Shown piece by piece: positions 1,902 to 27,828 of a stretch of DNA of 28,061 nucleotides. The DNA lies in the IMG/VR virus record IMGVR_UViG_3300036956_000151; one strand, given 5' to 3'. Every line of letters starts with the position of its first letter. Position 1 is the stretch's first letter. The notes below the pieces were generated by a model. That model made no database searches and was not told the DNA's origin. It saw only the letters and a program-made list of their open reading frames with translations. The position numbers and the translations under genes were made by a program. The DNA is from a virus. Its lineage: Duplodnaviria > Heunggongvirae > Uroviricota > Caudoviricetes.

Positions 1902-1978
1902 GGGCCGTTAGCTCAGTTGGTTAGAGCAGGCGACTCATAATCGCTTGGTCGCTGGTTCAAGTCCAGCACGGCCCACCA
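1902..1978 (+). tRNA. tRNA with CAU anticodon; anticodon and T arms match what I recall of enterobacterial ileX (tRNA-Ile2, lysidine type) better than elongator tRNA-Met; 77 nt including encoded CCA
   Basis: Acceptor stem GGGCCGT/ACGGCCC, D-arm TAGCTCAGTTGGTTAGAGCA, anticodon loop CTCATAA, T-arm GGTTCAAGTCC, 3' CCA; sits directly after rpoD as ileX does in E. coli. Confidence 0.9.
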
Positions 1979-2028
1979 TACGTATCAAGCACTTAGGCCA
2001 GCCTCACGAGGGCTGGCCTTTTGCTTTC
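1933..2028 (+). repeat. att direct repeat copy 1 (tRNA 3' half from anticodon loop plus terminator); part of the intact tRNA
   Basis: Near-identical to 12407-12502 and 27555-27660. Confidence 0.85.
1996..2027 (+). terminator. Rho-independent terminator of the tRNA (GGCCAGCC-N7-GGCTGGCC followed by TTTTGCTTT); repeated with the att copies at 12470-12501 and 27620-27651
   Basis: 8-bp GC stem plus T-run seen directly. Confidence 0.65.
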
Positions 2029-2036
2029 TGGGCCAA

Positions 2037-2055
2037 TGTAAGCACCTTGTAAGCG
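2037..2055 (+). promoter_or_regulatory. Two TGTAAGC heptamers (2037-2043, 2049-2055) at left end of element A; candidate integrase arm-type sites
   Basis: Same heptamer occurs three times at 12257-12287 at the opposite end, just upstream of the element A integrase start. Confidence 0.4.
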
Positions 2056-2530
2056 CCAGCAGAGGATGCGGGCCTGATGTCTGATGCGTACGTAACTTGT
2101 GTGCGTACCAGACTGCGTACTCGTGCATTGCACGGCCTCACATTGCGGTGCTGGCTATCGCCTTCCAAGCCCACGTTTAAAACGGAGCCTTCGACGGCGT
2201 GCTGAATACTCCGGTTTGAAATCGGAATATTCCCAGCTCCGGACAGCCCTGCGGCGACAGCCTCAAACCTTGACATCTTTGAACATCGGGCCTGACTCGC
2301 AGTAGAGGATGTCGCCGTTCCCGATACCCTGCAAAACCTACAAATCGTCGGCTTTGTGCAAGGGGCGCGAGGCATCCAACGCCATAAGGCACATATCGAA
2401 AGCTGCCTAGCAAGGGGGTGGCGTTTCGCCCACCCCTTTGATGCTCCCCGCAGGGTCGGGAAAACTACGCTATTTCCCGCAGTTTCAAGTTCGACCGTGG
2501 GCACCCTCGCCGGCCCCACCTCGCCCATCA

Positions 2531-2564
2531 ACCAAATTGGTAGATGGAGCAACCAATTTGGTTG
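2531..2564 (+). promoter_or_regulatory. Two adjacent palindromes ACCAAATTGGT and CAACCAATTTGGTTG; operator-like
   Basis: Perfect inverted repeats about 90-120 bp upstream of the Rha-like ORF. Confidence 0.35.
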
Positions 2565-2596
2565 CCACCAGCTTTACCGACCAGCACGGCGAAGGG

Positions 2597-2618
2597 GTGT
2601 CCTCAGTTTTGAGGATAC
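2597..2618 (+). promoter_or_regulatory. Palindrome GTGTCCTCA-GTTTT-GAGGATAC; operator-like, homologous to the site at 15443-15466 in element B
   Basis: Inverted repeat seen directly; 38 bp upstream of the ATG at 2657. Confidence 0.4.
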
Positions 2619-2656
2619 GTCGCCCCCGTCGCCAGCAGATACCCCATCAGCAAACC

Positions 2657-2803
2657 ATGAGCAGCCGCGAGATTGCGGAGCTAACGGGCAAGTGTCACGG
2701 CAACGTGAAGCGGACCATCGACACCTTGTCTGCCAAGGGAGTTATCCCTTTCCCTCATGCTGAGGAAAAGGCTACTGCGGGCCGTCCGCCGCTTGGCCTC
2801 TGA
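2657..2803 (+). CDS. Short ORF (48 aa) resembling only the N-terminal DNA-binding region of Rha/antirepressor-family phage proteins; possibly a truncated remnant
   Basis: MSSREIAELTGKCHGNVKRTIDTLSAKGVI matches the Rha-type N-terminal motif (SxEIAEL-GK-H-NV-R-I); no obvious SD. Confidence 0.4.
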   Translation: MSSREIAELTGKCHGNVKRTIDTLSAKGVIPFPHAEEKATAGRPPLGL

Positions 2804-2994
2804 GGGTGGCGTTTTTAAAACGCCCCCCCATGGAGAGCCAATATGGAGGCCATTTGCGGGAATGGCTCAGTTCTGAGCTATGAAGACCAGAGCCGGAATC
2901 CCTGTTCCACTCCCCATCCCGCCCAAGCCATGAATGCCGGCTGTCGCTGCAACCGTCGTGTGTAACTCTGCCCTGTAACCGCCAGCCAGAAGCG

Positions 2995-3016
2995 AAAAAC
3001 CCGGCGCTTGGCCGGG
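2995..3016 (-). terminator. Rho-independent terminator for the minus-strand gene 3054-3371 (CCCGGC-N5-GCCGGG followed by T5 on the minus strand)
   Basis: Hairpin plus A5 on the plus strand, about 40 bp past the stop codon. Confidence 0.5.
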
Positions 3017-3053
3017 TCTGTCCGTAGTGGGTACTAAACTTCAGGCGACATCT

Positions 3054-3371
3054 CTACCCCTCGGGGGAGCCAAAGTTGCGCAAAACCACACGGGCTAGGC
3101 TGCTGGTGCTGCAAAAACGGTCCTCGATGGCTGACATGACCGAGATGTTCAAGTCCTCGATTCTTGCCGACAGCCCGCGAAGCAATAGGGACTCGTCAAA
3201 GTTCTCCGATGTAAACGTTTCGCGCAGCATTCGGCACAGCCTGTCGATTTCCCAGGTTGCTTCCAGTGCTATGTCTCGGCGAGCCATGGACATAACTATA
3301 TCGTCGCCCTCTTCGCGGAGGTCTTGGTTGGTTCCGGTTTGGGGAAGGCTATCTAGTGTCGTTGCTTGCAT
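3054..3371 (-). CDS. Hypothetical acidic protein, 105 aa (MQATTLDSLPQTGTNQDLREEGDD...)
   Basis: ATG preceded by AAGGAG at 7 nt; terminator downstream; the plus-strand ORF over the same DNA is Ser-rich antisense-like. Confidence 0.5.
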   Translation of the reverse strand: MQATTLDSLPQTGTNQDLREEGDDIVMSMARRDIALEATWEIDRLCRMLRETFTSENFDESLLLRGLSARIEDLNISVMSAIEDRFCSTSSLARVVLRNFGSPEG

Positions 3372-3580
3372 GGTGGCTGCTCCTTGTGTGCGGTGATGTT
3401 CTCCGCAACCCCTTCCTACGGGGGCGGCGGAACCGTGCGGGGCTAGGAATACCGGACACAAGGAACCGGCCAGCCTCGCGGCTGCCCCACACGGCCCGCC
3501 ATTGAACAGGCGTCGCCATGCTTACCGACGTAAAAAAACCGCTTGCGCGGCCCTGTCGGCCTTGTGATTTCCGGGTTCCT
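3372..3580 (-). promoter_or_regulatory. Conserved ~200-bp structured non-coding leader (module 1), homologous to 15029-15235 in element B; possible promoter/5'-UTR or small RNA
   Basis: Alignable by eye with element B (shared GTTCTCCGC, GAACCGTGC, CCATGCTTACCGACGTAAAAAAACCGC-type blocks); conserved stems with compensatory changes; ends in SD plus ATG. Confidence 0.4.
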
Positions 3581-3760
3581 ACGCCCGCCCCTCTGTTTCG
3601 GGGGAAACTGAATCATGGGGCAGGCCGCTCGTTTCAGTCAATATAAAAATGATAATGAAATAGATTGGCTTGCCATAAATTTCGCTTGTACCATCGGCAT
3701 ACGACCACGGGCGTCTCGCAAGATGCAGACTGGCGCTCGCTCAAGACACAAGAGGCCCAC

Positions 3761-4735
3761 ATGAAGCGATTTGTTGTCATCCTCGGAGTATTGATGCTTG
3801 GCGGCTGCGCTACCGCCTATAAGCCTGAAGGTCACGGCGGAGGTTATACCGACGCTAGGTATGGCCCAAACCTCTTTGCAGTCACCGTGCGGGCCAACGG
3901 CTATACATCTTCTGACCGTGCAACAGAGCTGGCAATGCTACGAAGCGCGGAGCTTACATTGCAGAATGGATTCACCCATTTCGTCATCGCCGAGAGGGCT
4001 CAAGAGGCAAAGACCAGCACATTCAGCATGCCGACAACCACTTACACGACCGGAAATATCAACACGCAAGGAAATGCCGCTTACTTGAACGCCCAGACAA
4101 CAACTACAGGCGGGCAAACCTTCAATATTTCGAAGCCTCGCGTTTATTACAAAATAGAGTGTTACCGCAGTCAGCCCGACAGAGCCCTCGGGCTCGCTTA
4201 CGACGCCCGTGCAGTCTGCGAATCGCTTGGCAGCAAGTACGGCGTTGATTGCCAATCTCTCATCGCCACCAATCTCAAGCCTACCCATTCCAATGCCGGC
4301 GAAGTGCGTGCGGAGCTGTCCGCCGACCTGCCAGCCGGCTGGCAACGGCAAACTCTTTCTGACGAACTAGCGCAAAGAGGGGGAAGGCTGTTTGCCACTA
4401 ACAAGACCATAGACGCTGGGGCCTTGGTTTCGATGAGCAAACGGTCTGAAATTGTCGACACAGTCGTTTACGCCAAATCATTGAGAGCAAACCAAGCGAG
4501 CCTCATCGATAAAAGCGAGTGGTCTGAACTATCTGAAATCACCATAAACGGTCGTCGAGCATGGAAATTCTGGGTCACAGGCCTCTCAAAACGCGGCATG
4601 CAGGTTCAGTACCTAGGGACCGTTATTGAAGGCGAGTCACAGATGATTTACGTGAATACCTGGACTTCAAAGAAGAACTTTGACGATAACCGCACTGCTC
4701 TGGAGTCTCTCGCTGGCAGCTTTTCAGGCCTTTAG
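3761..4735 (+). CDS. Predicted lipoprotein, 324 aa, unknown function; low-GC cargo gene
   Basis: MKRFVVILGVLMLGGCATAYK (signal peptide with LGGC lipobox); AGAGG SD; GC visibly lower (~50%) than surroundings; Thr/Asn-rich linker segment. Confidence 0.8.
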   Translation: MKRFVVILGVLMLGGCATAYKPEGHGGGYTDARYGPNLFAVTVRANGYTSSDRATELAMLRSAELTLQNGFTHFVIAERAQEAKTSTFSMPTTTYTTGNINTQGNAAYLNAQTTTTGGQTFNISKPRVYYKIECYRSQPDRALGLAYDARAVCESLGSKYGVDCQSLIATNLKPTHSNAGEVRAELSADLPAGWQRQTLSDELAQRGGRLFATNKTIDAGALVSMSKRSEIVDTVVYAKSLRANQASLIDKSEWSELSEITINGRRAWKFWVTGLSKRGMQVQYLGTVIEGESQMIYVNTWTSKKNFDDNRTALESLAGSFSGL

Positions 4736-4768
4736 GCAGCGCAAGCGACGCCCGACCCCAAAGCGGCT

Positions 4769-4796
4769 ACGCGTGAAAGTGGCGTCTTTCACGCGT
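4769..4796. repeat. Palindromic hairpin repeat ACGCGTGAAAG-N6-CTTTCACGCGT; second copy at 5429-5456
   Basis: 11-bp perfect stems; two direct copies ~660 bp apart bracketing the repeat-rich block. Confidence 0.6.
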
Positions 4797-4907
4797 AACG
4801 ACGGGGCCAAGGGGAGGCCTCGTAGTCGGCTGGGTTGGCGATGAGCGGGGGAGAAGCAGGCTTGGTTTCCAGGGTCGGTTTCCAGCAGAACAGACCTTTT
4901 TCGCCTC

Positions 4908-4977
4908 CTGAAACCTGAACATCTTTCAGCATTCGCCGTCATGCCGTGCGCTTTTCTGTGCGCGTTGCCGGCTGCAT
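4908..4977. repeat. ~65-bp direct repeat (TGAACATCTTTCAGCAT...GTGCGCTTT...TTGCCGG), second copy 5148-5217; iteron-like
   Basis: Two copies ~240 bp apart read directly. Confidence 0.55.
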
Positions 4978-5260
4978 TACATCGAGGACCGGGCCAGCCA
5001 TGCGGTCGATGGCCACCTTGTGTTGTTCTTCAGGATTCAGGATTCAGCCGGGCCGGCACAGTGCTAGCACCGGGCTTGCCCGGTACTGGGGCTGCTTCGC
5101 ACTGCGGCCTGACGTGAAGACGCCCTCCCGCCCGGTCGTTTTGCTTCGTGAAAAGTGAACATCTTTCAGCATCGCATCGGGATGCTGTGCGCTTTCGCGT
5201 GCGGATTGCCGGAATCGGGGCAGGGCCAGTGCCGTCCATCTTCTGGACGCCATCGGTAGC

Positions 5261-5308
5261 GCCGATTTCAGCGCCGATTGACCGGCCGATTGACCGGCCG
5301 ATTGGCTG
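5261..5308. repeat. 12-bp tandem repeat GCCGATTGACCG, about four units, outer units degenerate
   Basis: GCCGATTTCAGC GCCGATTGACCG GCCGATTGACCG GCCGATTGGCTG. Confidence 0.6.
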
Positions 5309-5428
5309 CGCACCGAGCTGCGTACCACTGCCCTGCGTACCCGACTGCCGACGAAGGCCACGCCGCCAGCAGCGGCCACCAGTTCCAGAAAAGCGGCCTA
5401 CTCGCCAGCGTAGAGCTAGTAGCGGCCA

Positions 5429-5456
5429 CGCGTAAAAGTCGCGCCTTTCACGCGTG
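5429..5456. repeat. Second copy of the palindromic hairpin repeat (ACGCGTAAAAG-N6-CTTTCACGCGT)
   Basis: See 4769-4796. Confidence 0.6.
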
Positions 5457-5471
5457 ACGACGCGTGCGAGG

Positions 5472-5499
5472 GGAAGGAAGGAAGGAAGGAAGGAAGGAA
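5472..5499. repeat. (GGAA)7 tetranucleotide microsatellite
   Basis: Seven perfect GGAA units. Confidence 0.9.
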
Positions 5500-5771
5500 C
5501 TCTCTACGAGCGCGTTTGATGCGCCTGGCTACCTGCGCTTCCCTCAGACACGCAGTGCGTTCTTCGGTCTCCAGACGGGCGAGTGCACAGGCCATCCGGG
5601 CCAGGGTCAGAACTTACTGTTTCAGGCTGGCGGATTCTCGTTCCAGGGCGGCGAGTCGTTCAGCCTCCCCAAAACTCCCCAAAACCCCCCATTTATGGGT
5701 GCCGTCCTCCCCAAAACTCCCCACACCACCTTTAAGAGGTGGGGGGAAATGGGGACCATGTGGGGAATGGG

Positions 5772-7745
5772 TTACTTGAGCCACAGCCAGCCCTCCCGAA
5801 GGACGATGCAGCCACGGTTCACAAGTCCGGTAATGGCAAGCTGCGCCCTGTAACGTTTCTGGTCCGGGTCACATGCAAGGCGGGCGCGGGTCTTGTCGAT
5901 AGCCTCTTCCAGTTCAACGCAGGGCCGGCCAGGAGGTCCGCCAGCTTCCCCGAAGTGCCGCGACTCTTTCAGCAGGTCGCGCAGTGCGTCGAGGATGATT
6001 CGCTGATTCCCGCCGGTCGGCAGCTTCACCCGCCCCACGGCATCGGCGGCGCGCTCTTCGGGAACGACGCAGCAGCTTGTGATTTCGTCGCCGTCCTCGT
6101 CGGCCCCGATTTCCACCACTTCCAGCCGAAACGGTTTTCCCAGGTCGTCATTGCCATCCTTGCTCTTCGCGGCCGTCCATTCCCGGCGGTCGTCGGTGCG
6201 GCTCACCTCGATGGCGGCATCAAGCGCAGCGTGAAGGCTGGAATGCCCCCGCAGGCCCTTGGACGCATCCTTGCCGGTGTGATGCACCAGCAGCACCAGC
6301 CCGCCAAGCTCCGCCTGTAGCGCCTTCGTCGCGGCGATGATTTCGCCCATTGCGGCGGAGTCGTTCTCGTCGGCACCCGGCGCGGCGCGGTTCAGCGTGT
6401 CGAGGGCCAACACGCCACCCGAGTAACCGGCAGCGCGGGCGGCGCTCACAAGGTCGGCGCGGTCGGCAGCTTTGCGGATGTCGAGCGGTTGCAGCAGGAA
6501 GCGGAATGCGCCGGCAAGTGGGCCGTGTTTCTCTTGGTGCGCCTGGACGCGTTGCGAGATGCCGGCCTCACCCTCAAGGGCAACATACAGCACTGGGGCG
6601 GCCTTCACGCGGCACCCGAACCACGGCCGGCCAGCGGCGACAGCGGCGAGCATGTCGAGCGCCAGGAAGGATTTGCCGGACCCGCTTGGGCCATACAACG
6701 CGGCAATCCCTTCCTCCGGGAGCACACCACGCACCCGCCAGCGGACAGGGGGCAGCGCGGCCAGTTCAGACGGTGCCAGCAGCCGGAAGCGTTGCGAGTG
6801 CTTCTTCGGATTGGCCAGCAGTGCGGCCAGGGCGTCGAGGCCGTCCCGCTGGTGCATGTCGTTGGCGTCAAAGTTGGCGGGCGAGCCTTCCGGCATTTCC
6901 ACCCATGCGGCGGCGGTGTCCTTGGCGATGCGGGCGCAATGCGACTCCTTGCCGGCATCGGCCACCAACACCCGGCGGGCCAGCGGGTAGCGGTCGGCCA
7001 GCGCCTTGGATGCGGCTTCCATCCGGCCGGCACCGAAGCAGACCGCGGCCGGCGCGTTCGCGGCCTGGTGGCAGCTCCACGCCTGCCCGACGCCCTCGCA
7101 CAGGTAGAGCGTGACGCCTGCGCCCTGGTGCGGGATGCGCCCCACCACGAACAGGCCGTCCATCGGCAGGCCGGGGGCGTTCAGTTTCTTGCCATCGGCC
7201 GGCGGGATGAATTGCGCGCTCTTCAGGGTGCCGTCAATCGCGTAGCACGGCACCACGAGATAGCCGGCCACCGCCTCGCGGGCGATGGTCAGCGGGCCGC
7301 CATAGACGCGCAGGCCGGCGGGTAGGCCATGCTTGCGGGCAATGTAGCCGTGTTCCGCCGTCGCTGGTGCGCAGGATGCCCACAGGGCGGCCACGTCGAG
7401 CGGCGGAGCCTTGGACGGGGCTTCGTGCATCCGGCGCTCGGTCGTGCGTTGTGGGCGGTTCTGGTAAGTCTGGCGCGGTGCGTCGTCGCTCCATCCAGCG
7501 GCGCGGGCCAGTGCGAAGAGCGTACCGGCCTGGATGCCGCCATCCTCGCGGATGCTCCGCCAGACGGCGCGTGCGTCGGCCTCGTTGCGATAGTTGCCGG
7601 CTCCGGCGCTCCAGTCATGGAAGTCCTCGAAGTCGAGGCCGGCAGCCTTTGCAGCCATGCCAGCCCGGACCCATTCGGCGCGTTCGGCACCGGGGTCGAG
7701 GGCGTGCAAGGCAAAGCGGGCGCGGTCAAACTCGCGGGCATCCAT
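5772..7745 (-). CDS. Primase-helicase-type replication protein, 657 aa (PriCT-like N-terminus, Toprim-like centre, RecA-type ATPase C-terminus); ORF-track N-terminal 71 aa rejected
   Basis: MDAREFDRARFALHALDP...GLDFEDFHDWSAG; CEGVGQAW and VLVADAGKE; Walker A YGPSGSGKSFLALD and VLLVHHTGKD; ATG overlaps upstream stop (ATGA). Confidence 0.85.
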   Translation of the reverse strand: MDAREFDRARFALHALDPGAERAEWVRAGMAAKAAGLDFEDFHDWSAGAGNYRNEADARAVWRSIREDGGIQAGTLFALARAAGWSDDAPRQTYQNRPQRTTERRMHEAPSKAPPLDVAALWASCAPATAEHGYIARKHGLPAGLRVYGGPLTIAREAVAGYLVVPCYAIDGTLKSAQFIPPADGKKLNAPGLPMDGLFVVGRIPHQGAGVTLYLCEGVGQAWSCHQAANAPAAVCFGAGRMEAASKALADRYPLARRVLVADAGKESHCARIAKDTAAAWVEMPEGSPANFDANDMHQRDGLDALAALLANPKKHSQRFRLLAPSELAALPPVRWRVRGVLPEEGIAALYGPSGSGKSFLALDMLAAVAAGRPWFGCRVKAAPVLYVALEGEAGISQRVQAHQEKHGPLAGAFRFLLQPLDIRKAADRADLVSAARAAGYSGGVLALDTLNRAAPGADENDSAAMGEIIAATKALQAELGGLVLLVHHTGKDASKGLRGHSSLHAALDAAIEVSRTDDRREWTAAKSKDGNDDLGKPFRLEVVEIGADEDGDEITSCCVVPEERAADAVGRVKLPTGGNQRIILDALRDLLKESRHFGEAGGPPGRPCVELEEAIDKTRARLACDPDQKRYRAQLAITGLVNRGCIVLREGWLWLK

Positions 7746-8194
7746 CACATCACCCCCAGCACGCGCACGAAGGCCGCGACAACGGCGGCGGTCACGGATG
7801 CAGCGGCGAAGACAACGAGCGCGTCGAGGCTGATGGAACCGCGTTGCTGTCGTGCGTTCAGGGCGGCAGCGGTTGCCGGGTGCTGGCGGTCGAGCGCGTA
7901 CTCGGTGATTGTGCTGCGGCAATGGGGGCGGCGGATGTCGCGCTTGCAAAACGCCCACCCGCCATACTCCAGCGACTTAACTGACGCGGCCAGCCGCCAC
8001 CCGTCGCGGTAGTCGGCCTGGTTCTGCGGGCCGGTCAGCAGCGCCTGAAGGGCTTCGTAAGCCCGGGTGTTGTCGTTCGGCCAGCTTGCAGCTTCAACAG
8101 GCGGCAGCGTCTCGGGAAAGAGGTCTTGGGCGTTATAATGGCGAGGCTTGTCCAGGGCGCTCGACTTCTTTTTGGGGGTCGGGCGCTTTTTCAT
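7745..8194 (-). CDS. Hypothetical protein, 149 aa, basic N-terminus and hydrophobic C-terminal helix; coupled to primase gene
   Basis: ATGA overlaps at both ends. Confidence 0.6.
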   Translation of the reverse strand: MKKRPTPKKKSSALDKPRHYNAQDLFPETLPPVEAASWPNDNTRAYEALQALLTGPQNQADYRDGWRLAASVKSLEYGGWAFCKRDIRRPHCRSTITEYALDRQHPATAAALNARQQRGSISLDALVVFAAASVTAAVVAAFVRVLGVM

Positions 8195-8520
8195 GCCGCA
8201 CCAGCCTTTCGGGCCTTCGCTTCGACGAGCGCCATTTCATTGGCAGCGAACTCCTGACCTGCGCTGCCGGCGGCCTCAATGACTTCGACCGGCAGGCGGT
8301 ACTGCGCGAAGGCGCACGACTCGCCGAAGCGGTTGGGACGTTGGATAGTCTCCTTCGCGACGCCCCAGCCCCATTTGGTCAGGAGGAAAACGACGGCGGC
8401 AGTCCGGTAGATGCCCAGCGTCCTCCAGCTTGCAATGGGGCCAATGGCATTGCCAGCCAGAAACGCAGCGAGCAGGCGGGCGCTCTGGGTGCCGTGCTTG
8501 GGGTAGGTGCCGGCCATCAT
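8191..8520 (-). CDS. Hypothetical protein, 109 aa
   Basis: Start overlaps upstream stop (TAATG); stop overlaps downstream start (ATGA). Confidence 0.6.
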   Translation of the reverse strand: MMAGTYPKHGTQSARLLAAFLAGNAIGPIASWRTLGIYRTAAVVFLLTKWGWGVAKETIQRPNRFGESCAFAQYRLPVEVIEAAGSAGQEFAANEMALVEAKARKAGAA

Positions 8521-8750
8521 TACGCCACCTCGCCAGAGGTAAGGGCCTCAACGGCCGCGGCGTCCCACAGCAAGAAGCGGTTGCGGCACTTGACCGGGCG
8601 CAGGCCGAAGTAATGCCCGTCACGGCACAGGGCGGCGCGCAAGGTCTGCGGGCGCACCTTCAGGACGGCGGCGGCCTCAATGGTGGAGTAGTTGCGCAGG
8701 ATGGACGCGATGTCCGTGCGCTTGGTGGTGGGTGTGTTTTGGTGTTGCAT
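8520..8750 (-). CDS. Small HTH DNA-binding protein, 76 aa, AlpA/excisionase-like; first gene of the replication operon
   Basis: STIEAAAVLKVRPQTLRAALCRDGHYFGLRPVKCRNRFLLWDAAAVEAL; AGGAGA SD; same motif pattern as the element B gene at 23916-24098. Confidence 0.7.
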   Translation of the reverse strand: MQHQNTPTTKRTDIASILRNYSTIEAAAVLKVRPQTLRAALCRDGHYFGLRPVKCRNRFLLWDAAAVEALTSGEVA

Positions 8751-8843
8751 TCGCTGGTTCTCCTGCTCGGAAAACCACCGTTGAGAGTCGCCGGATGCAA
8801 CTCAATCAACGCTGGCGAACGCAATGTGTTGCGCCGAAGTCTA

Positions 8844-8859
8844 TTAACAGCCGGCTGTT
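8844..8859. promoter_or_regulatory. Perfect 16-bp palindrome TAACAGCCGGCTGTTA in the promoter region of the element A replication operon
   Basis: Lies between the stop at 8863 and the HTH gene start at 8750. Confidence 0.35.
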
Positions 8860-8862
8860 ATG

Positions 8863-9456
8863 TTACCCGCCATTTCCAAGATGCTGATTTTTAAGGGTCT
8901 TTAGGCTGTTTAGAAATTTGCGCTCTTCGCTACCCCCCTCGGTTCTAAGTCCGTGCTCGTCAGTGAATACAACATACCCCGCGTCGCGCTGCACGACTCC
9001 ACGGCTCTCCAGTTTGTCCAGCATATCCGATGCAGTCAGGAGTCTGTTCTTGTCCCATATGGCCTTTGCCTCTAGTCGCCAGCGGATAGTAGCGGGCCGT
9101 CCTCCTTTGCGTACGACACGCTTCTGCGACGCGGACCTAGCCTGCTGTGCTCTTGCTGCTGCGGCGTAATGCTGCATCATCGGAGACAAGGGACCGACAG
9201 CAAGAATGGCAGACCTTGCAGCCGCAACGGACGCGGCGTGCGCAGCATCAACCATTGGCTGCATCCACTGACGCGTTTTTTCAGGCCACGTCTCCCTTAG
9301 AAGTCCAAGAGGCGGCTCCTGCAAAGGTAGGGTCAGCGAGCTTCTCAGCACCGACTCGAACACGGCGAGCTGGATTTCCTCGGCCCCGCGCCTGAAGTCA
9401 GCCGCGAATGATGCGGACTGACCTCCCATCCCCTGTTTTTTCAAATGCTTTGTCAT
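8863..9456 (-). CDS. Hypothetical protein, 197 aa; contains a GGRPA motif shared with the syntenic 252-aa protein of element B
   Basis: AAGGAG SD 6 nt upstream; directly preceded by conserved hairpin module 2. Confidence 0.6.
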   Translation of the reverse strand: MTKHLKKQGMGGQSASFAADFRRGAEEIQLAVFESVLRSSLTLPLQEPPLGLLRETWPEKTRQWMQPMVDAAHAASVAAARSAILAVGPLSPMMQHYAAAARAQQARSASQKRVVRKGGRPATIRWRLEAKAIWDKNRLLTASDMLDKLESRGVVQRDAGYVVFTDEHGLRTEGGSEERKFLNSLKTLKNQHLGNGG

Positions 9457-9477
9457 CGCGCTCCTTCAAGCGCCTTC

Positions 9478-9552
9478 AAAAGAGGCACCGCGCCAGGCGG
9501 GTGAAGGTTCCCGCTTTTCGGTTGGCCGACCTAGGCGCGGTGGTGGTACTCG
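9478..9552. terminator. Conserved nested-hairpin element (module 2): outer stem CACCGCGCC/GGCGCGGTG enclosing inner hairpin GCGGG-N8-CCCGC plus T4; terminator-like in both orientations; homologous copy at 25028-25104
   Basis: Near-identical flanks in both elements; inner stem differs by compensatory changes (GCGGG/CCCGC versus CGGGG/CCCCG). Confidence 0.45.
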
Positions 9553-9553
9553 G

Positions 9554-9934
9554 TCAGGCGGCAATCGCCTCATTCAAGGGACACGGCTGAATCAGCACGT
9601 CAGCCGGGAGGCCGAGGCCAGAAGACAGGCGGCGAATCATCGTCACCGACAGCGGGCGCGTCCGGTTCATGATGTCGGCCACCCTCCCCCGCGGGCCGAT
9701 GTAAGGCTCCAAGTCCTTGCGCGTCAATCCGCGGGACTCCATGACGTACTCAAGGAAGGCCACCGGGTCCGGGGCTTTAATCAGGAAGTGCGCCTTTTCG
9801 TAGGCTTCCACCAGCATGGCGAGCACCTCCAGGCGGTCGGCCTCGGGGCTTCCATCAGGGGCATCCCACAGGCGTTCGATATCGGCCAGGGCTTCGTTGT
9901 GCTCGGCTTCGGTTCGGATGGGCTTCAGTTCCAT
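9554..9934 (-). CDS. higA: HigA-family antitoxin (HTH), 126 aa
   Basis: Immediately downstream of the HigB-type toxin gene; AGGAG SD; C-terminal HTH-like segment LTRKDLEPYIGPRGRVADIMNRTRPLSVTMIRRL. Confidence 0.8.
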   Translation of the reverse strand: MELKPIRTEAEHNEALADIERLWDAPDGSPEADRLEVLAMLVEAYEKAHFLIKAPDPVAFLEYVMESRGLTRKDLEPYIGPRGRVADIMNRTRPLSVTMIRRLSSGLGLPADVLIQPCPLNEAIAA

Positions 9935-9942
9935 GGCGGCTC

Positions 9943-10236
9943 CTAGATGGTTTCAGCGTCTATCCGGTCGTACTCGGCATGAGTGCCCACGAAACGGATG
10001 AACATCATGGTGGAGGTGTAACGCACAGCCGCCACCAACCGGTAGTCATTGCCCTTGATGTTGAACACCACGCGGTTGTTCGCCAGAAAGCTGGCGTTCC
10101 GGTGCGCGGCCTTGATGTCGGCCGGGGTTTGCCAGGTGGCCCGGCTTGCCTCGGCGTACCAACCACGCAAAGGGGTTTCGGCTTGCGGATGCTTCTCCCA
10201 AAACTCGCGCAGTGCTCGCAGTGCAATGATGTGCAT
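9943..10236 (-). CDS. higB: HigB-family type II toxin (mRNA interferase), 97 aa
   Basis: MHIIALRALREFWEKHP...NNRVVFNIKGNDYRLVAAVRY...IRFVGTHAEYDRIDAETI; toxin-first order. Confidence 0.85.
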   Translation of the reverse strand: MHIIALRALREFWEKHPQAETPLRGWYAEASRATWQTPADIKAAHRNASFLANNRVVFNIKGNDYRLVAAVRYTSTMMFIRFVGTHAEYDRIDAETI

Positions 10237-10319
10237 GACTCAATCTAGCATGTTACCGTTTTGGTAGCAAACACTCAGGCTTTCACCACCCGCAGCCCGG
10301 CCGCCTGCTCTTCGCCCGG

Positions 10320-10604
10320 TCAGGCGGCGATGCGTGCCACGGGTGCCCGGTCCTTGGCGCGCTCGCCGGCTGTCCAGAGGTCGCGCTGCGTTTGCAGGCG
10401 CAGCCAGTAGCCGGGCGAGGTGCCTAGCGCCTCGTGCAGGCGCAGGTCCATATCGGCGGTGACGGCGGCATGCCCGTGCAGGATGCGGGACAACATCACC
10501 CGGCTGATGCCCACATGGGCGGCAAAGGCGGTCACGCTCATATCGAGGTCTTCCAGCCAGCCGGCCAGGATTTCGCCAGGGGTTGAAGGGTCGTGCATGT
10601 CCAT
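10320..10604 (-). CDS. HigA-like antitoxin (XRE-type HTH), 94 aa
   Basis: PGEILAGWLEDLDMSVTAFAAHVGISRVMLSRILHG...ITADMDLRLHEALGTSPGYWLRLQTQRDL; follows the killer-protein toxin gene. Confidence 0.8.
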   Translation of the reverse strand: MDMHDPSTPGEILAGWLEDLDMSVTAFAAHVGISRVMLSRILHGHAAVTADMDLRLHEALGTSPGYWLRLQTQRDLWTAGERAKDRAPVARIAA

Positions 10605-10615
10605 GATGTCGGGCC

Positions 10616-10894
10616 TCAGTGGTAATCCAGATAGTCCAGCAGTTCCACGTTTCCGCCATCGAAGCGGAACACAAGCCGCCAGTTGGCTTGCACCGTCATG
10701 GCGAGGAAGCCGGCGCGGTCGCCGGACAGGCCATGCAGGCGCCAGGACGGGCGGGCGAGGTCTTCCGGGCCGGCGGCGGCGTTCAGGGCGGTCAGCATTT
10801 CCCGTAGGCGCTTGGCGTGAATCGGCTGAATGCCGGCCTGCTTGCCGGTCAGGAAGAAGGCTTCAAGCCCCTTGTGTCGGAACGATAGAATCAT
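10616..10894 (-). CDS. RelE/ParE-superfamily toxin of the HigB killer-protein type, 92 aa
   Basis: MILSFRHKGLEAFFLTGKQAGIQPIHAKRLREMLTALNAA...LLDYLDYH. Confidence 0.85.
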   Translation of the reverse strand: MILSFRHKGLEAFFLTGKQAGIQPIHAKRLREMLTALNAAAGPEDLARPSWRLHGLSGDRAGFLAMTVQANWRLVFRFDGGNVELLDYLDYH

Positions 10895-10898
10895 AGTC

Positions 10899-10917
10899 TG
10901 TAAATCATAGCTTTACA
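10899..10917. promoter_or_regulatory. Inverted repeat TGTAAA-N7-TTTACA upstream of the toxin gene; likely TA operator/promoter
   Basis: Between toxin start (10894) and integrase stop (10926). Confidence 0.4.
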
Positions 10918-10925
10918 ATGTCCGC

Positions 10926-12242
10926 TCAGGTCACAACCCGCAACCCAGGCGCCTGCCCCTCGTCCGGCTGCTCGATGCCGGCCTGCTCCAGAATCCAGCC
11001 CTCTATCTTGATGTGCCACAGGGTCAGCAGGTCGAGCGGCCGGCGGCGATAGTGCTTCTCGGCCAAGGCGCTGGGCTTGTGCCCCTGAATCTGCGCCACC
11101 ACGCCGACGGGCACCTCGCACCACTCCGCCAGGGTGCCGAAGGAGCGGCGCAGGTCATGCAGCGAGAATGGCGGCAGGCCGGCGGCTTCCATCGCTTTGC
11201 GCAGGGGTTTGAGGACTTCCACGATACGGCCATCCGCGGCCGCAGGGCTTGAGAACACCCACTCATTCCGGCGCGGCAGAGAGGCCAGCAGCGAGGCGAC
11301 GAAGGGCGTCAGCGGGATGATGCGGCCCTCTTCCTCCACCTTGTCGGCGATGTGCAGGGACTTCCATTGAAAATCCACGTCAGCCCATTTCAGGCCGGCC
11401 AGTTCCTCGCGCCTCGCGCCGGTCAGGAGCAAGGTTTGCAGGTAGGCGGCGTGCACCGGGTTCCCCAGCTTGCGGACATGCTCGAACCACAGCGGCAATT
11501 GTTCGCGGCGCAGGCTGTCGCCTTTGGTCTTCACCGCCTGCACTTGGTCCCGCACTTCGCTGGTGCGGCAGGCATCCGCACGAACGAGGCCGGCATACTC
11601 CGGGCGCTCGGCACACCAGCCAAGGAAGGCGCGCACGAGGCGGAATATCTTTGCGGCCTGCGTCGCCCCGCGGGCGTTGTTGTCCTGCATCCATGCCGTG
11701 ATGCGTGCCGGGGTCAGGTCCAATAGGCGCACATGCAGCAGCGGATGTACCATGCCGGGCAAAGTGTATTCCCCCTGCCCAGCCTTGCGCCCTCGCGTGA
11801 TGCGCTCGCCGCCGGGCTTTATGGCCTGTGCATGGTCGCGCTGTGAGGACTCGCCCCACTTGTGCGAGCGGGCCAGAACATAGGCGGCCCATGCCTCGCC
11901 AACGGTCACTTCCTGCCGTGCGGACTCTTCCCGCTTGGCCTCGATGGCGGCGCGCTTGTCGGCCTTCTCTTGGCGCGGGTCGATGCCTTGGTCAATCAGG
12001 GTTTGCAGGCGGCGGGCTTCGGCGCGGGCTGCGTCAATGCCCCACGCGCGCACGTCGCCAATCGTGATGCGAAGAGCCTTGCCGTTCAGGCGGCTTTGGA
12101 AGATGAACCCGCGCGCCTCGCTGCCGGGTGTGGCACGCACTGCGAGGCCGGGCGCTTCCGTGTCCCACAGGAAGGCTTGAGCGGTGCCGGTCGGGCATTC
12201 AAATTCGCGGATGCGGCCGGCGGTCAGCTTGTTGCGTGCCAT
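10926..12242 (-). CDS. int: Tyrosine recombinase, P4-type integrase (element A); ATG at 12242 preferred over the ORF-track start at 12248
   Basis: ~438 aa; catalytic-domain blocks LTGARREELAGL, HDLRRSFGT, HKPSALAEKHYRRR; GGAGAA SD; adjacent to att copy 2. Confidence 0.9.
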   Translation of the reverse strand: MARNKLTAGRIREFECPTGTAQAFLWDTEAPGLAVRATPGSEARGFIFQSRLNGKALRITIGDVRAWGIDAARAEARRLQTLIDQGIDPRQEKADKRAAIEAKREESARQEVTVGEAWAAYVLARSHKWGESSQRDHAQAIKPGGERITRGRKAGQGEYTLPGMVHPLLHVRLLDLTPARITAWMQDNNARGATQAAKIFRLVRAFLGWCAERPEYAGLVRADACRTSEVRDQVQAVKTKGDSLRREQLPLWFEHVRKLGNPVHAAYLQTLLLTGARREELAGLKWADVDFQWKSLHIADKVEEEGRIIPLTPFVASLLASLPRRNEWVFSSPAAADGRIVEVLKPLRKAMEAAGLPPFSLHDLRRSFGTLAEWCEVPVGVVAQIQGHKPSALAEKHYRRRPLDLLTLWHIKIEGWILEQAGIEQPDEGQAPGLRVVT

Positions 12243-12256
12243 GTTCAAGTTCTCCG

Positions 12257-12287
12257 TGTAAGCGGCTCATGTAAGCAGCTTGTAAGC
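12257..12287. promoter_or_regulatory. Three TGTAAGC heptamers (12257, 12270, 12281) upstream of the element A integrase; candidate arm-type sites
   Basis: Direct repeats read from sequence; same heptamer at the left end (2037-2055). Confidence 0.4.
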
Positions 12288-12406
12288 GGATTCTAGAACA
12301 CGCTTCAATTTCCATCAACGTCAAAAACGGAATGAATGCTTTATTTTCAATGCCTTGCTGTTTTTATGAAACGCTATTCAATGTCAAAAAACCCCGTAAC
12401 CATTCA

Positions 12407-12502
12407 ACTCATAATCGCTTGGTCGCTGGTTCAAGTCCAGCACGGCCCACCATACGTATCAAGCACTTAGGCCAGCCTCACGAGGGCTGGCCTTTTGCTT
12501 TC
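12407..12502 (+). repeat. att direct repeat copy 2 (junction between element A and element B); tRNA 3' half only, no 5' half
   Basis: ACTCATAATCGCTTGGTCGCTGGTTCAAGTCCAGCACGGCCCACCA plus terminator; preceded by unrelated AT-rich sequence. Confidence 0.85.
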
Positions 12503-12510
12503 CGGCGCCG

Positions 12511-12529
12511 TGTAGCCACCATGTAGCCA
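12511..12529. promoter_or_regulatory. Two TGTAGCCA octamers at left end of element B; candidate arm-type sites
   Basis: Same motif at 27389-27425 (three copies, one inverted) upstream of the element B integrase. Confidence 0.4.
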
Positions 12530-16464: not shown

Positions 16465-16632
16465 TTACTCCCCGCTTCCGCCGAATCCGCCAGGCTTCTT
16501 CCCGCCCGGTGTGCCGCCGAATCCACCACCTCCACCACCACCACCAAACCCGCCTCCGCCGCCGGCACGCGTGAGGCTCTTTACGGGCTCGCCAAGCAGG
16601 AAGCCGGCGGCGTCGCTTCGGATCGCTGCCAT
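16465..16632 (-). CDS. Gly-rich small protein, 55 aa
   Basis: MAAIRSDAAGFLLGEPVKSLTRAGGGGGFGGGGGGGGFGGTPGGKKPGGFGGSGE; coupled at both ends (TGAcATG and TAAagcctATG); not in the ORF track because under 60 aa. Confidence 0.45.
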   Translation of the reverse strand: MAAIRSDAAGFLLGEPVKSLTRAGGGGGFGGGGGGGGFGGTPGGKKPGGFGGSGE

Positions 16633-27554: not shown

Positions 27555-27660
27555 CGACTCATAATCGCTTGGTCGCTGGTTCAAGTCCAGCACGGCCCAC
27601 CAATAGCATCAAGCACTTAGGCCAGCCTCACGAGGGCTGGCCTTTTGCTTTCCGGCGCCG
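27555..27660 (+). repeat. att direct repeat copy 3 (right end of element B); tRNA 3' half plus terminator, a few substitutions after CCA
   Basis: Same 46-nt tRNA 3' segment and terminator; shares the tail CGGCGCCG with copy 2. Confidence 0.85.
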
Positions 27661-27828
27661 GCATCCGGGAATGACAATAAAATTCTGCAGCGCAACCTGA
27701 ACCATCCAGAACGGCTGCAAAAAGTATGATGCAGCGCCGCAATCCATCACCTATAAAGGAGCATGTACCCGGGTTCGGCGCACTTCGCCCGGCCCCATTC
27801 TCACGACGCTGACATCCCGGAGAATTTC

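Follow-up and report, generated by a model that had tools for sequence, protein, structure and literature searches.

A perfect GGAA microsatellite of lineage-associated length in the gene-free gap of a phage-satellite-like island at tRNA-Met

The window, by which we mean the whole 28,061-nt stretch of DNA analysed here (a JGI metagenome contig), starts with rpoD (15-1892) and a tRNA-Met gene (1902-1978), the 3′ half of which is overlapped by the first of three att-like direct repeats of ~119 nt (1933-2051, 12407-12525 and 27557-27675). Between these three copies lie two islands in tandem, of ~10.5 and ~15 kb, each carrying a tyrosine integrase, an int-alpA RNA and a C4-type antisense RNA. Island A (1933-12525; ~10.5 kb between the first two att copies) has its integrase on the minus strand (10926-12248), together with a HigB-like toxin gene, an HTH_3 gene, the int-alpA RNA, small HTH genes and the primase/helicase gene (5772-7745, minus; 657 aa, PriCT_2 and AAA_25). 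A 76-aa HTH protein of the island has only a faint HTH_17 record. The cargo gene convergent with the primase (3761-4735, plus) encodes a 324-aa lipoprotein of the CC0125/CC1285 family. The att copies at tRNA-Met, the integrase, the primase, the int-alpA and C4-type RNAs and an origin-like module would fit a PICI- or P4-like satellite, and no capsid-remodelling or packaging gene was identified in island A. Judged by its gene content, island A appears to be a phage-satellite-like (integrase/AlpA-type/primase) element at tRNA-Met.

The relatives of the primase belong to Rhodocyclales-type betaproteobacteria, and the closest named match in the primase scan of genome contigs was a metagenome-assembled genome of Candidatus Dechloromonas phosphorivorans, in which the homologue is disrupted. 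The 90%-identity cluster of the lipoprotein includes one member annotated in Fluviibacter phosphoraccumulans. The rpoD/tRNA-Met site is also occupied by related islands in four other loci from metagenomes and genomes (L004, L007, L014 and L015). A megablast search with positions 4000-8000 gave no match in plasmid and phage collections, and a scan of viral contigs for the flanks of the tract described below found none. The lipoprotein gene and a 197-aa ORF (8863-9456) have a GC3 of 0.58-0.59, against 0.76-0.88 in the other island and host genes, which suggests acquisition from a different source.

Directly 3′ of the primase stop lies the origin-like module (~5660-5770), in which two inverted iteron sets, one of the CTCCCCAAAA type (5665-5724) and one of inverted GGGGA units (5741-5767), are arranged around A/T-cored palindromes (CCACCTTTAAGAGGTGG and CCCATTTATGGG). 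The same architecture was found at the same place in every relative examined, with a clade-specific iteron sequence: GGGGAG in the window and L003 (L003 5228-5360), CGGGAA-type in L004 and L009 (5986-6110 in both) and in L014-L017 (just after the primase stop), GCCACA in L018 (also just after the primase stop) and GCCGAAATTC in L036 (~2190-2330). The origins of phage-inducible chromosomal islands (PICI) lie immediately 3′ of the replication gene and have two iteron sets flanking an AT-rich region (PMC6092414). By analogy, module 5660-5770 would be the putative origin of the island. The iteron sequence appears to change together with the C-terminal ~60 residues of the primase; the sequences suggest that origin specificity may be co-evolving with the initiator primase.

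The stops of the primase and of the convergent lipoprotein gene bound a gene-free gap of ~1 kb, in which the tract is located. At its primase end, a small coiled-coil-like ORF (5614-5784, minus; 56 aa) overlaps the primase stop and is cut by an in-frame TAA (5614-5616), which is present in the window and in all near-identical copies; the same frame resumes at an ATG at 5595. The homologue of this ORF in L003 is intact (89 aa). Remnants of a VRR-NUC nuclease gene follow (5310-5415, minus), as start and C-terminal fragments that are fused and contain in-frame stops. The start remnant, LYAGE, can be compared with SFYAGE in L003, and the C-terminal part, AAFLELVAAAGGVAFV, with a 107-aa fusion ORF in L009. 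Both the small ORF and the VRR-NUC gene are intact in L003, and in L009 they are differently fused in frame.

Further from the primase there is a distal block of repeats. Four AATCGGC units with an exact 12-nt spacing (5261-5303, minus) are conserved in L004 and L009, and number five in L027 and L028. A direct repeat of ~75 nt (GCTGAAAGATGTTCA... on the minus strand) has its units at 4899-4971 and 5139-5212 in the window and a single unit in L004. Between the two units lies a stretch (5020-5104, minus) that stems from the middle part of a phage O-like replication-initiator gene. This match extends over 108 nt with 87% DNA identity between L001 (4573-4679) and the phage contig L044 (411-518), and over 72 nt with 83% identity between the window (5033-5104) and L044. 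The matched gene (P0124) belongs to PHROG 16167, and the matched part is its middle, inter-domain region with ATCCTGAATCC repeats. In lambdoid phages the origin is found inside the middle part of the O-like initiator gene; the island may therefore have captured the origin of a helper phage. Within the O-like stretch lies a TCCTGAA heptamer repeat (5029-5047), at which the window is without 14 nt (ATCCTGAATCCCCT) that are present in both L001 and L044.

The gap also contains two copies of a 54-nt repeat with an internal palindrome. Copy 1 (4762-4815, palindrome 4769-4796) lies 27 nt past the lipoprotein stop, and copy 2 (5421-5474, palindrome 5427-5456) abuts the tract; copy 1 has AAGGGGAGG at the position where copy 2 has the tract. 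L004 and L036 have copy 1 as their sole palindromic repeat. The possibility that the repeat is a dispersed mobile element found no support, since the window has just two copies and 26 loci gave a single exact match. In L036 (~1215-1255), the single repeat has an 11-nt internal expansion and resembles a hybrid of the copy-1 and copy-2 loops of the window, which indicates that the palindrome itself is also unstable. From the features of the gap, the setting of the tract is best described as decayed, patchwork DNA at the junction of a duplicated palindromic element.

The initial annotation had placed a perfect (GGAA)7 repeat at 5472-5499, and both Tandem Repeats Finder (period 4, 7.0 copies, 100% matches, consensus GGAA) and direct reading of the sequence agree with these coordinates. 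The tract is a perfect homopurine/homopyrimidine tetranucleotide microsatellite, (GGAA)7 on the plus strand and (TTCC)7 on the primase-operon strand. It starts at the end of copy 2 of the palindromic repeat and is separated from the primase/helicase stop codon by 272 nt; its placement between the second hairpin repeat and the 3′ end of the primase gene is also correct. When the window was simulated 300 times under a first-order Markov model, perfect tetranucleotide runs reached a maximum of 2 or 3 units. No other tetranucleotide run of at least 4 units exists in the window, and none was found across 188 kb of more distant related loci; hence, the tract cannot be attributed to chance. The description of the repeat as unusual is thus borne out, with seven units against a maximum of 3 in the 300 simulations. 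The tract is 28 bp long, contains only G and A on the plus strand and is mirror-symmetric, and therefore has the sequence form associated with H-DNA, a homopurine/homopyrimidine mirror repeat of about 20 bp or longer.

Near-identical copies of the island were gathered by exact-protein look-ups and by a flank-pattern scan. All of them come from metagenome assemblies, which give the majority allele only and are compatible with fast switching within populations. Among 17 such copies in public assemblies, eight have five units: L001 (ERR2985274), L032 (ERR2985267), L002 (SRR21369212), L011 (APMI01043750), L012 and L013 (Ga0075160/63), and L029 and L031 (ERZ22666027/56). Seven have seven units: the window itself, L030/L040, L033, L034 and L042 (four JGI samples), L035/L041 (SRR11827187) and L038 (SRR11809658). 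The remaining two are aberrant. L027 has seven units and one extra T, at a coverage of 0.87x, and L028 has three units and a deletion of ~48 nt that reaches into the palindrome, at a coverage below 1x; with such coverage, both alleles may contain errors. Alleles of 4, 6 or 8 units were absent from the 17 copies, and the tract is perfect in every well-covered contig.

The comparison of unit number across strains, which had been proposed as a check on the instability of the repeat, thus gave 5 against 7 units in otherwise identical DNA, indicating that slipped-strand instability is real. Over 3.2 kb (3596-6810) the window and L001 have no substitutions, and they differ in the length of the tract and in the 14-nt unit at the heptamer repeat, and in nothing else. 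Other contigs show further differences in length, namely an extra copy of the 12-mer or an 11-nt insertion (L011). Two more tandem repeats of the gap are polymorphic in length, the heptamer repeat at 5029-5047 (with or without the 14-nt unit) and the AATCGGC repeat (four or five units). No other difference in this DNA evolves as fast as the length of its tandem repeats, in keeping with slipped-strand mispairing.

The distribution of the alleles follows the lineages of the island. Seven units were found only on the background without the 14-nt unit at 5044, and five units on both backgrounds; every tract-containing copy with the exact primase protein of the window has seven units. With two main alleles that are associated with lineages, the tract looks like a slowly mutating microsatellite and not like a contingency locus. 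Since the phage gene in L044 has the 14-nt unit, its presence would be the ancestral state, and the most parsimonious history runs from five units through the loss of the 14 nt to a gain of two units in the lineage of the window. This would amount to roughly one tract change in the sampled genealogy, a rate that is high relative to substitutions and unlike that of a contingency locus. The occurrence of 5 and 7 units, and never of 6, could reflect a constraint on tract length or simply the existence of two lineages. One contig with the exact primase of the window (L043, SRR11827189) stops 18 nt short of the tract; the assembly may have broken off there because tracts of different length were mixed in the sample, or the position may be a coincidence.

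Taken together, we regard it as probable that the tract is a microsatellite of recent, lineage-specific origin, prone to slippage, probably neutral and located in the untranslated 3′ tail of the primase operon. A short purine motif at the edge of the ~54-nt palindromic element, represented by AAGGGGAGG in copy 1, may have been the seed of the tract. The palindromic element would have been duplicated into the remains of the small ORF and the VRR-NUC gene, and the length of the tract would then have shifted by slipped-strand mispairing in the gene-free gap. The ancestral state in the sampled population would be 5 units, with two units added in the lineage of the window. Neutrality is what we infer for the tract, and this runs against prior expectation, since bacteria seldom have seven perfect tetranucleotide units and such tracts are enriched at contingency loci.

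An effect of the tract on DNA architecture, with the number of units tuning replication or regulation, seems unlikely. The initial annotation had suggested that copy number could alter spacing within an origin or near a promoter, giving phase-variable behaviour. As to the origin, the tract sits 160 nt outside the origin-like module, which is complete in L003, L004, L009, L014-L018 and L036, none of which has the tract, as is true of every relative outside this lineage; since these relatives keep the module without it, the tract is not part of the module, and a role in origin spacing finds no support. Nor does the tract itself belong to a PICI-type origin, being 160 nt beyond the module and missing from the relatives. 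As to a promoter, a consensus scan of 4600-5900 found no sigma-70-like promoter and no intrinsic terminator, and on neither strand does a credible gene follow the tract before the convergent lipoprotein gene or the antisense of the primase is reached; the proposed promoter spacing is thus not supported either. Phase-variable behaviour is likewise unsupported, as the two main alleles track lineages and there is no credible target gene.

An architectural effect could take two forms. The tract would determine how far apart, or in what helical phase, the origin module and the distal block (the four AATCGGC units, the ~75-nt units and the O-like fragment) lie; alternatively, it would do so for the two palindromes (4769-4796 and 5428-5455), should these be operators for an HTH protein of the island. 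The position of the tract between two repeat-rich modules is consistent with such a role, as is its distance of 15 nt from a palindrome with 12-bp arms that occurs exactly twice in the window, where no occurrence is expected. All three tandem repeats of the gap are polymorphic in length, and at nadA a promoter-distal tetranucleotide tract flanked by operators can modulate expression (PMC2791445). The only alleles observed, in turn, were ones that differ by 8 nt. Against this, L004 and L009 have the same origin module and distal block without the tract and with one copy of the palindrome, which means that the arrangement is not conserved; as tract-less relatives share both module and block, the tract is not a conserved component of either. 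The alleles are moreover fixed by lineage and not scattered, no promoter-like site or target gene was found, and no binding protein was identified.

We consider a role of the tract in nucleic-acid structure or at the level of RNA quite improbable. In the transcript of the operon, (UUCC)n would be an unstructured, G-free and C-rich stretch after the last stop codon, and could serve as a putative Rho-loading (rut-like) site or as an aid to 3′-end formation. Rho prefers C-rich, unstructured RNA. In the DNA, the 28-bp mirror repeat could form putative H-DNA that impedes forks or transcription beside the origin; homopurine/homopyrimidine mirror repeats form H-DNA, and the homopurine mirror symmetry can be read directly in the sequence. 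In the predicted minus-strand RNA, the tract is unpaired, and 14 nt beyond it comes a 14-bp hairpin that lacks a U-tail. The same palindrome lies 27 nt past the convergent lipoprotein gene, a terminator-like position, and the palindromes may be terminator-like elements or candidate protein-binding sites. Since the small ORF upstream terminates at 5614, the tract would be untranslated. A pure-pyrimidine operon strand directly before a strong hairpin, combined with a mirror repeat, would allow a role at the level of RNA or DNA structure. Nevertheless, the G-poor stretch covers only ~36 nt amid G-rich RNA, no terminator emerged from the consensus scan, and the relatives do without the tract. Even with permissive E-values, 4600-5900 gave no match to an Rfam family, so that the GGA-rich plus strand is not accounted for by a CsrB/Rsm-type RNA or another known one.

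It is doubtful in the extreme that the tract is a functional tuning knob, either for 3′-end formation and read-through of the operon, with (UUCC)n as a Rho-loading or spacer element ahead of the hairpin, or for the coupling of the origin to the block derived from a helper-phage O-like gene. Were this so, the five- and seven-unit lineages would be expected to replicate, or to interfere with the helper, differently.

The tract had been described as lying outside coding sequence, and this holds in substance, given that the ORFs that cross it are mechanical and have no coding signature. In the window there is one of 59 aa on the minus strand and, on the plus strand, one of 129 aa. The former (5416-5595) continues the broken small ORF and reads the tract as FLPSFLPSF. 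The frame that opens at ATG 5595 depends on the number of units: it gives 59 aa at seven units and 181-220 aa at 2, 5, 8 or 11. In the five-unit contigs, gene callers report a hypothetical protein of 178-220 aa (L001 4090-4752 and the equivalents P0125, P0121, P0122, P0123 and P0127), which has already been entered in JGI/IMG, ENA, Logan and MetaClust. In its composition, this protein is spurious. The GC content by codon position of the five-unit ORF is flat (0.68/0.60/0.60), as against a GC3 of 0.76-0.88 in rpoD, the primase, two small primase-operon ORFs and both integrases, and arginine makes up 15% of the product. The product has no match to a PHROG family, and a search of 5.8 billion proteins gave full-length homologues in copies of this locus only, with one further match confined to the O-like-gene fragment. 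The ORF runs through the palindrome, the iterons and pieces of other genes in the wrong frames. In L011 the 11-nt insertion changes the frame and the ORF still remains open, an indication that open frames are cheap in this G+C-rich DNA. No gene was called in the homologous stretch of L004-L008. Exact-protein look-ups of the 59-aa and 111-aa mechanical ORFs, which should pick up other non-5 alleles, returned no record; for the 111-aa ORF the negative result may stem from the translation of its GTG start codon.

On these grounds we find it highly implausible that the repeat is a translational phase switch, in which the ORF from ATG 5595 would be ON at n = 2, 5, 8 and 11 (181-220 aa) and otherwise OFF. 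The arithmetic of the frames agrees with such a switch, the seven units of the window being an OFF state of 59 aa; gene callers do predict the 185-220-aa product in the five-unit contigs, five units are at least as frequent as seven, and the extra T of L027 restores the long frame in spite of its seven units. However, that base may be an error at 0.87x coverage, and the N-terminal 32 residues of the product are the tail of the stop-broken gene. The ORF has no codon-position GC signal, a family match is missing, and no full-length homologue exists outside the locus; it traverses the palindrome, the iterons and out-of-frame pieces of other genes, with arginine at 15%, and the shift in L011 leaves the frame open. 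A real phase-variable gene of 220 aa was accordingly rejected on its composition, the lack of homologues and the frame disruption in L011. We also considered a plus-strand ORF for which the tract would act as a Shine-Dalgarno-like sequence. Its nearest starts are TTG 5516 and ATG 5519, and it was rejected, on sequence alone, because these lie 16-19 nt from the end of the tract and the ORF is antisense to the tail of the primase.

Finally, that the difference between five and seven units is an artefact of assembly or sequencing is scarcely credible: every copy does come from metagenome assemblies, both aberrant alleles are from contigs below 1x coverage and L043 breaks just before the tract, but a tract of 20-28 nt is easily spanned by short reads, each allele occurs with identical flanks in at least seven independent assemblies from several projects and assemblers, and the alleles correlate with other markers.

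Tetranucleotide contingency loci are known from Haemophilus influenzae, Neisseria and Moraxella (reviewed in PMC11868660). The tract resembles them in being a perfect simple-sequence tetranucleotide repeat that is longer than expected by chance and in showing slippage-driven differences in length between otherwise identical genomes, with unit numbers that vary among close relatives (eight contigs with five units and seven with seven). In contingency loci, however, the tracts belong to the true coding regions or the promoters of surface or restriction-modification genes and are usually longer, whereas here the tract is in neither a genuine coding sequence nor the promoter of an affected gene, and no credible gene or promoter is at hand. 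Contingency loci also have many alleles among and within isolates, poorly tied to background, whereas the consensus assemblies of this small sample of 17 contigs show two main alleles that follow lineages.

The nadA TAAA tract of Neisseria meningitidis (PMC2791445) offers a parallel in its position, since it is likewise intergenic, with an adjoining palindromic candidate protein-binding site and a spacing that can change. However, at nadA the promoter is defined, and a target gene, NadR operators and an IHF site are known; no counterpart of these was identified here, and our tract is not conserved among related islands. A further likeness is to the PICI/SaPI origins (PMC6092414), which the 5660-5770 arrangement after the primase/helicase recalls, the tract being in the same intergenic gap. 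In this case, by contrast, the tract is 160 nt outside the module and missing from relatives that have it, and the origin of the island is itself putative. The tract shares with H-DNA-forming mirror repeats its 28 bp of pure purine/pyrimidine and its mirror symmetry, features known here from the letters of the DNA. We know of no role for H-DNA repeats in the replication of satellites or islands.

The tract also resembles the non-coding microsatellites or variable-number tandem repeats (VNTR) of bacteria, such as those surveyed in Mycobacterium (PMC1501019), which have few alleles, are informative of lineage and have no demonstrable phenotype. The likeness to an ordinary VNTR extends to the neighbouring 7-mer and 12-mer repeats, which are polymorphic too. 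It differs in that seven perfect units are at the long end for a bacterium of ~62% G+C, and in its place inside a mobile island beside a putative origin.

As it stands, the tract matters little and is an instance of a feature type that is already known. It can be used as a strain marker for one island lineage in wastewater-type betaproteobacteria with a Fluviibacter-like host. It also calls for caution in annotation, in that the five-unit allele gives rise to a spurious hypothetical protein of 185-220 aa in several databases. If the number of units were to affect the replication of the island or the termination of the operon, it would represent the first case of a function tuned by a microsatellite in a phage-satellite-like element; to our knowledge, a mechanism of variation based on microsatellites has not yet been described for phage satellites. 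More attention than the tract may be due to the conserved origin-like module, whose iterons differ by clade, and to the piece of a phage initiator gene inside the island.

Island B, the second of the tandem pair, contains an imperfect (CCA)8 tract at 16523-16546, five units of which are perfect. It is situated between ORFs of at least 120 aa and is crossed only by short, low-complexity mechanical ORFs.
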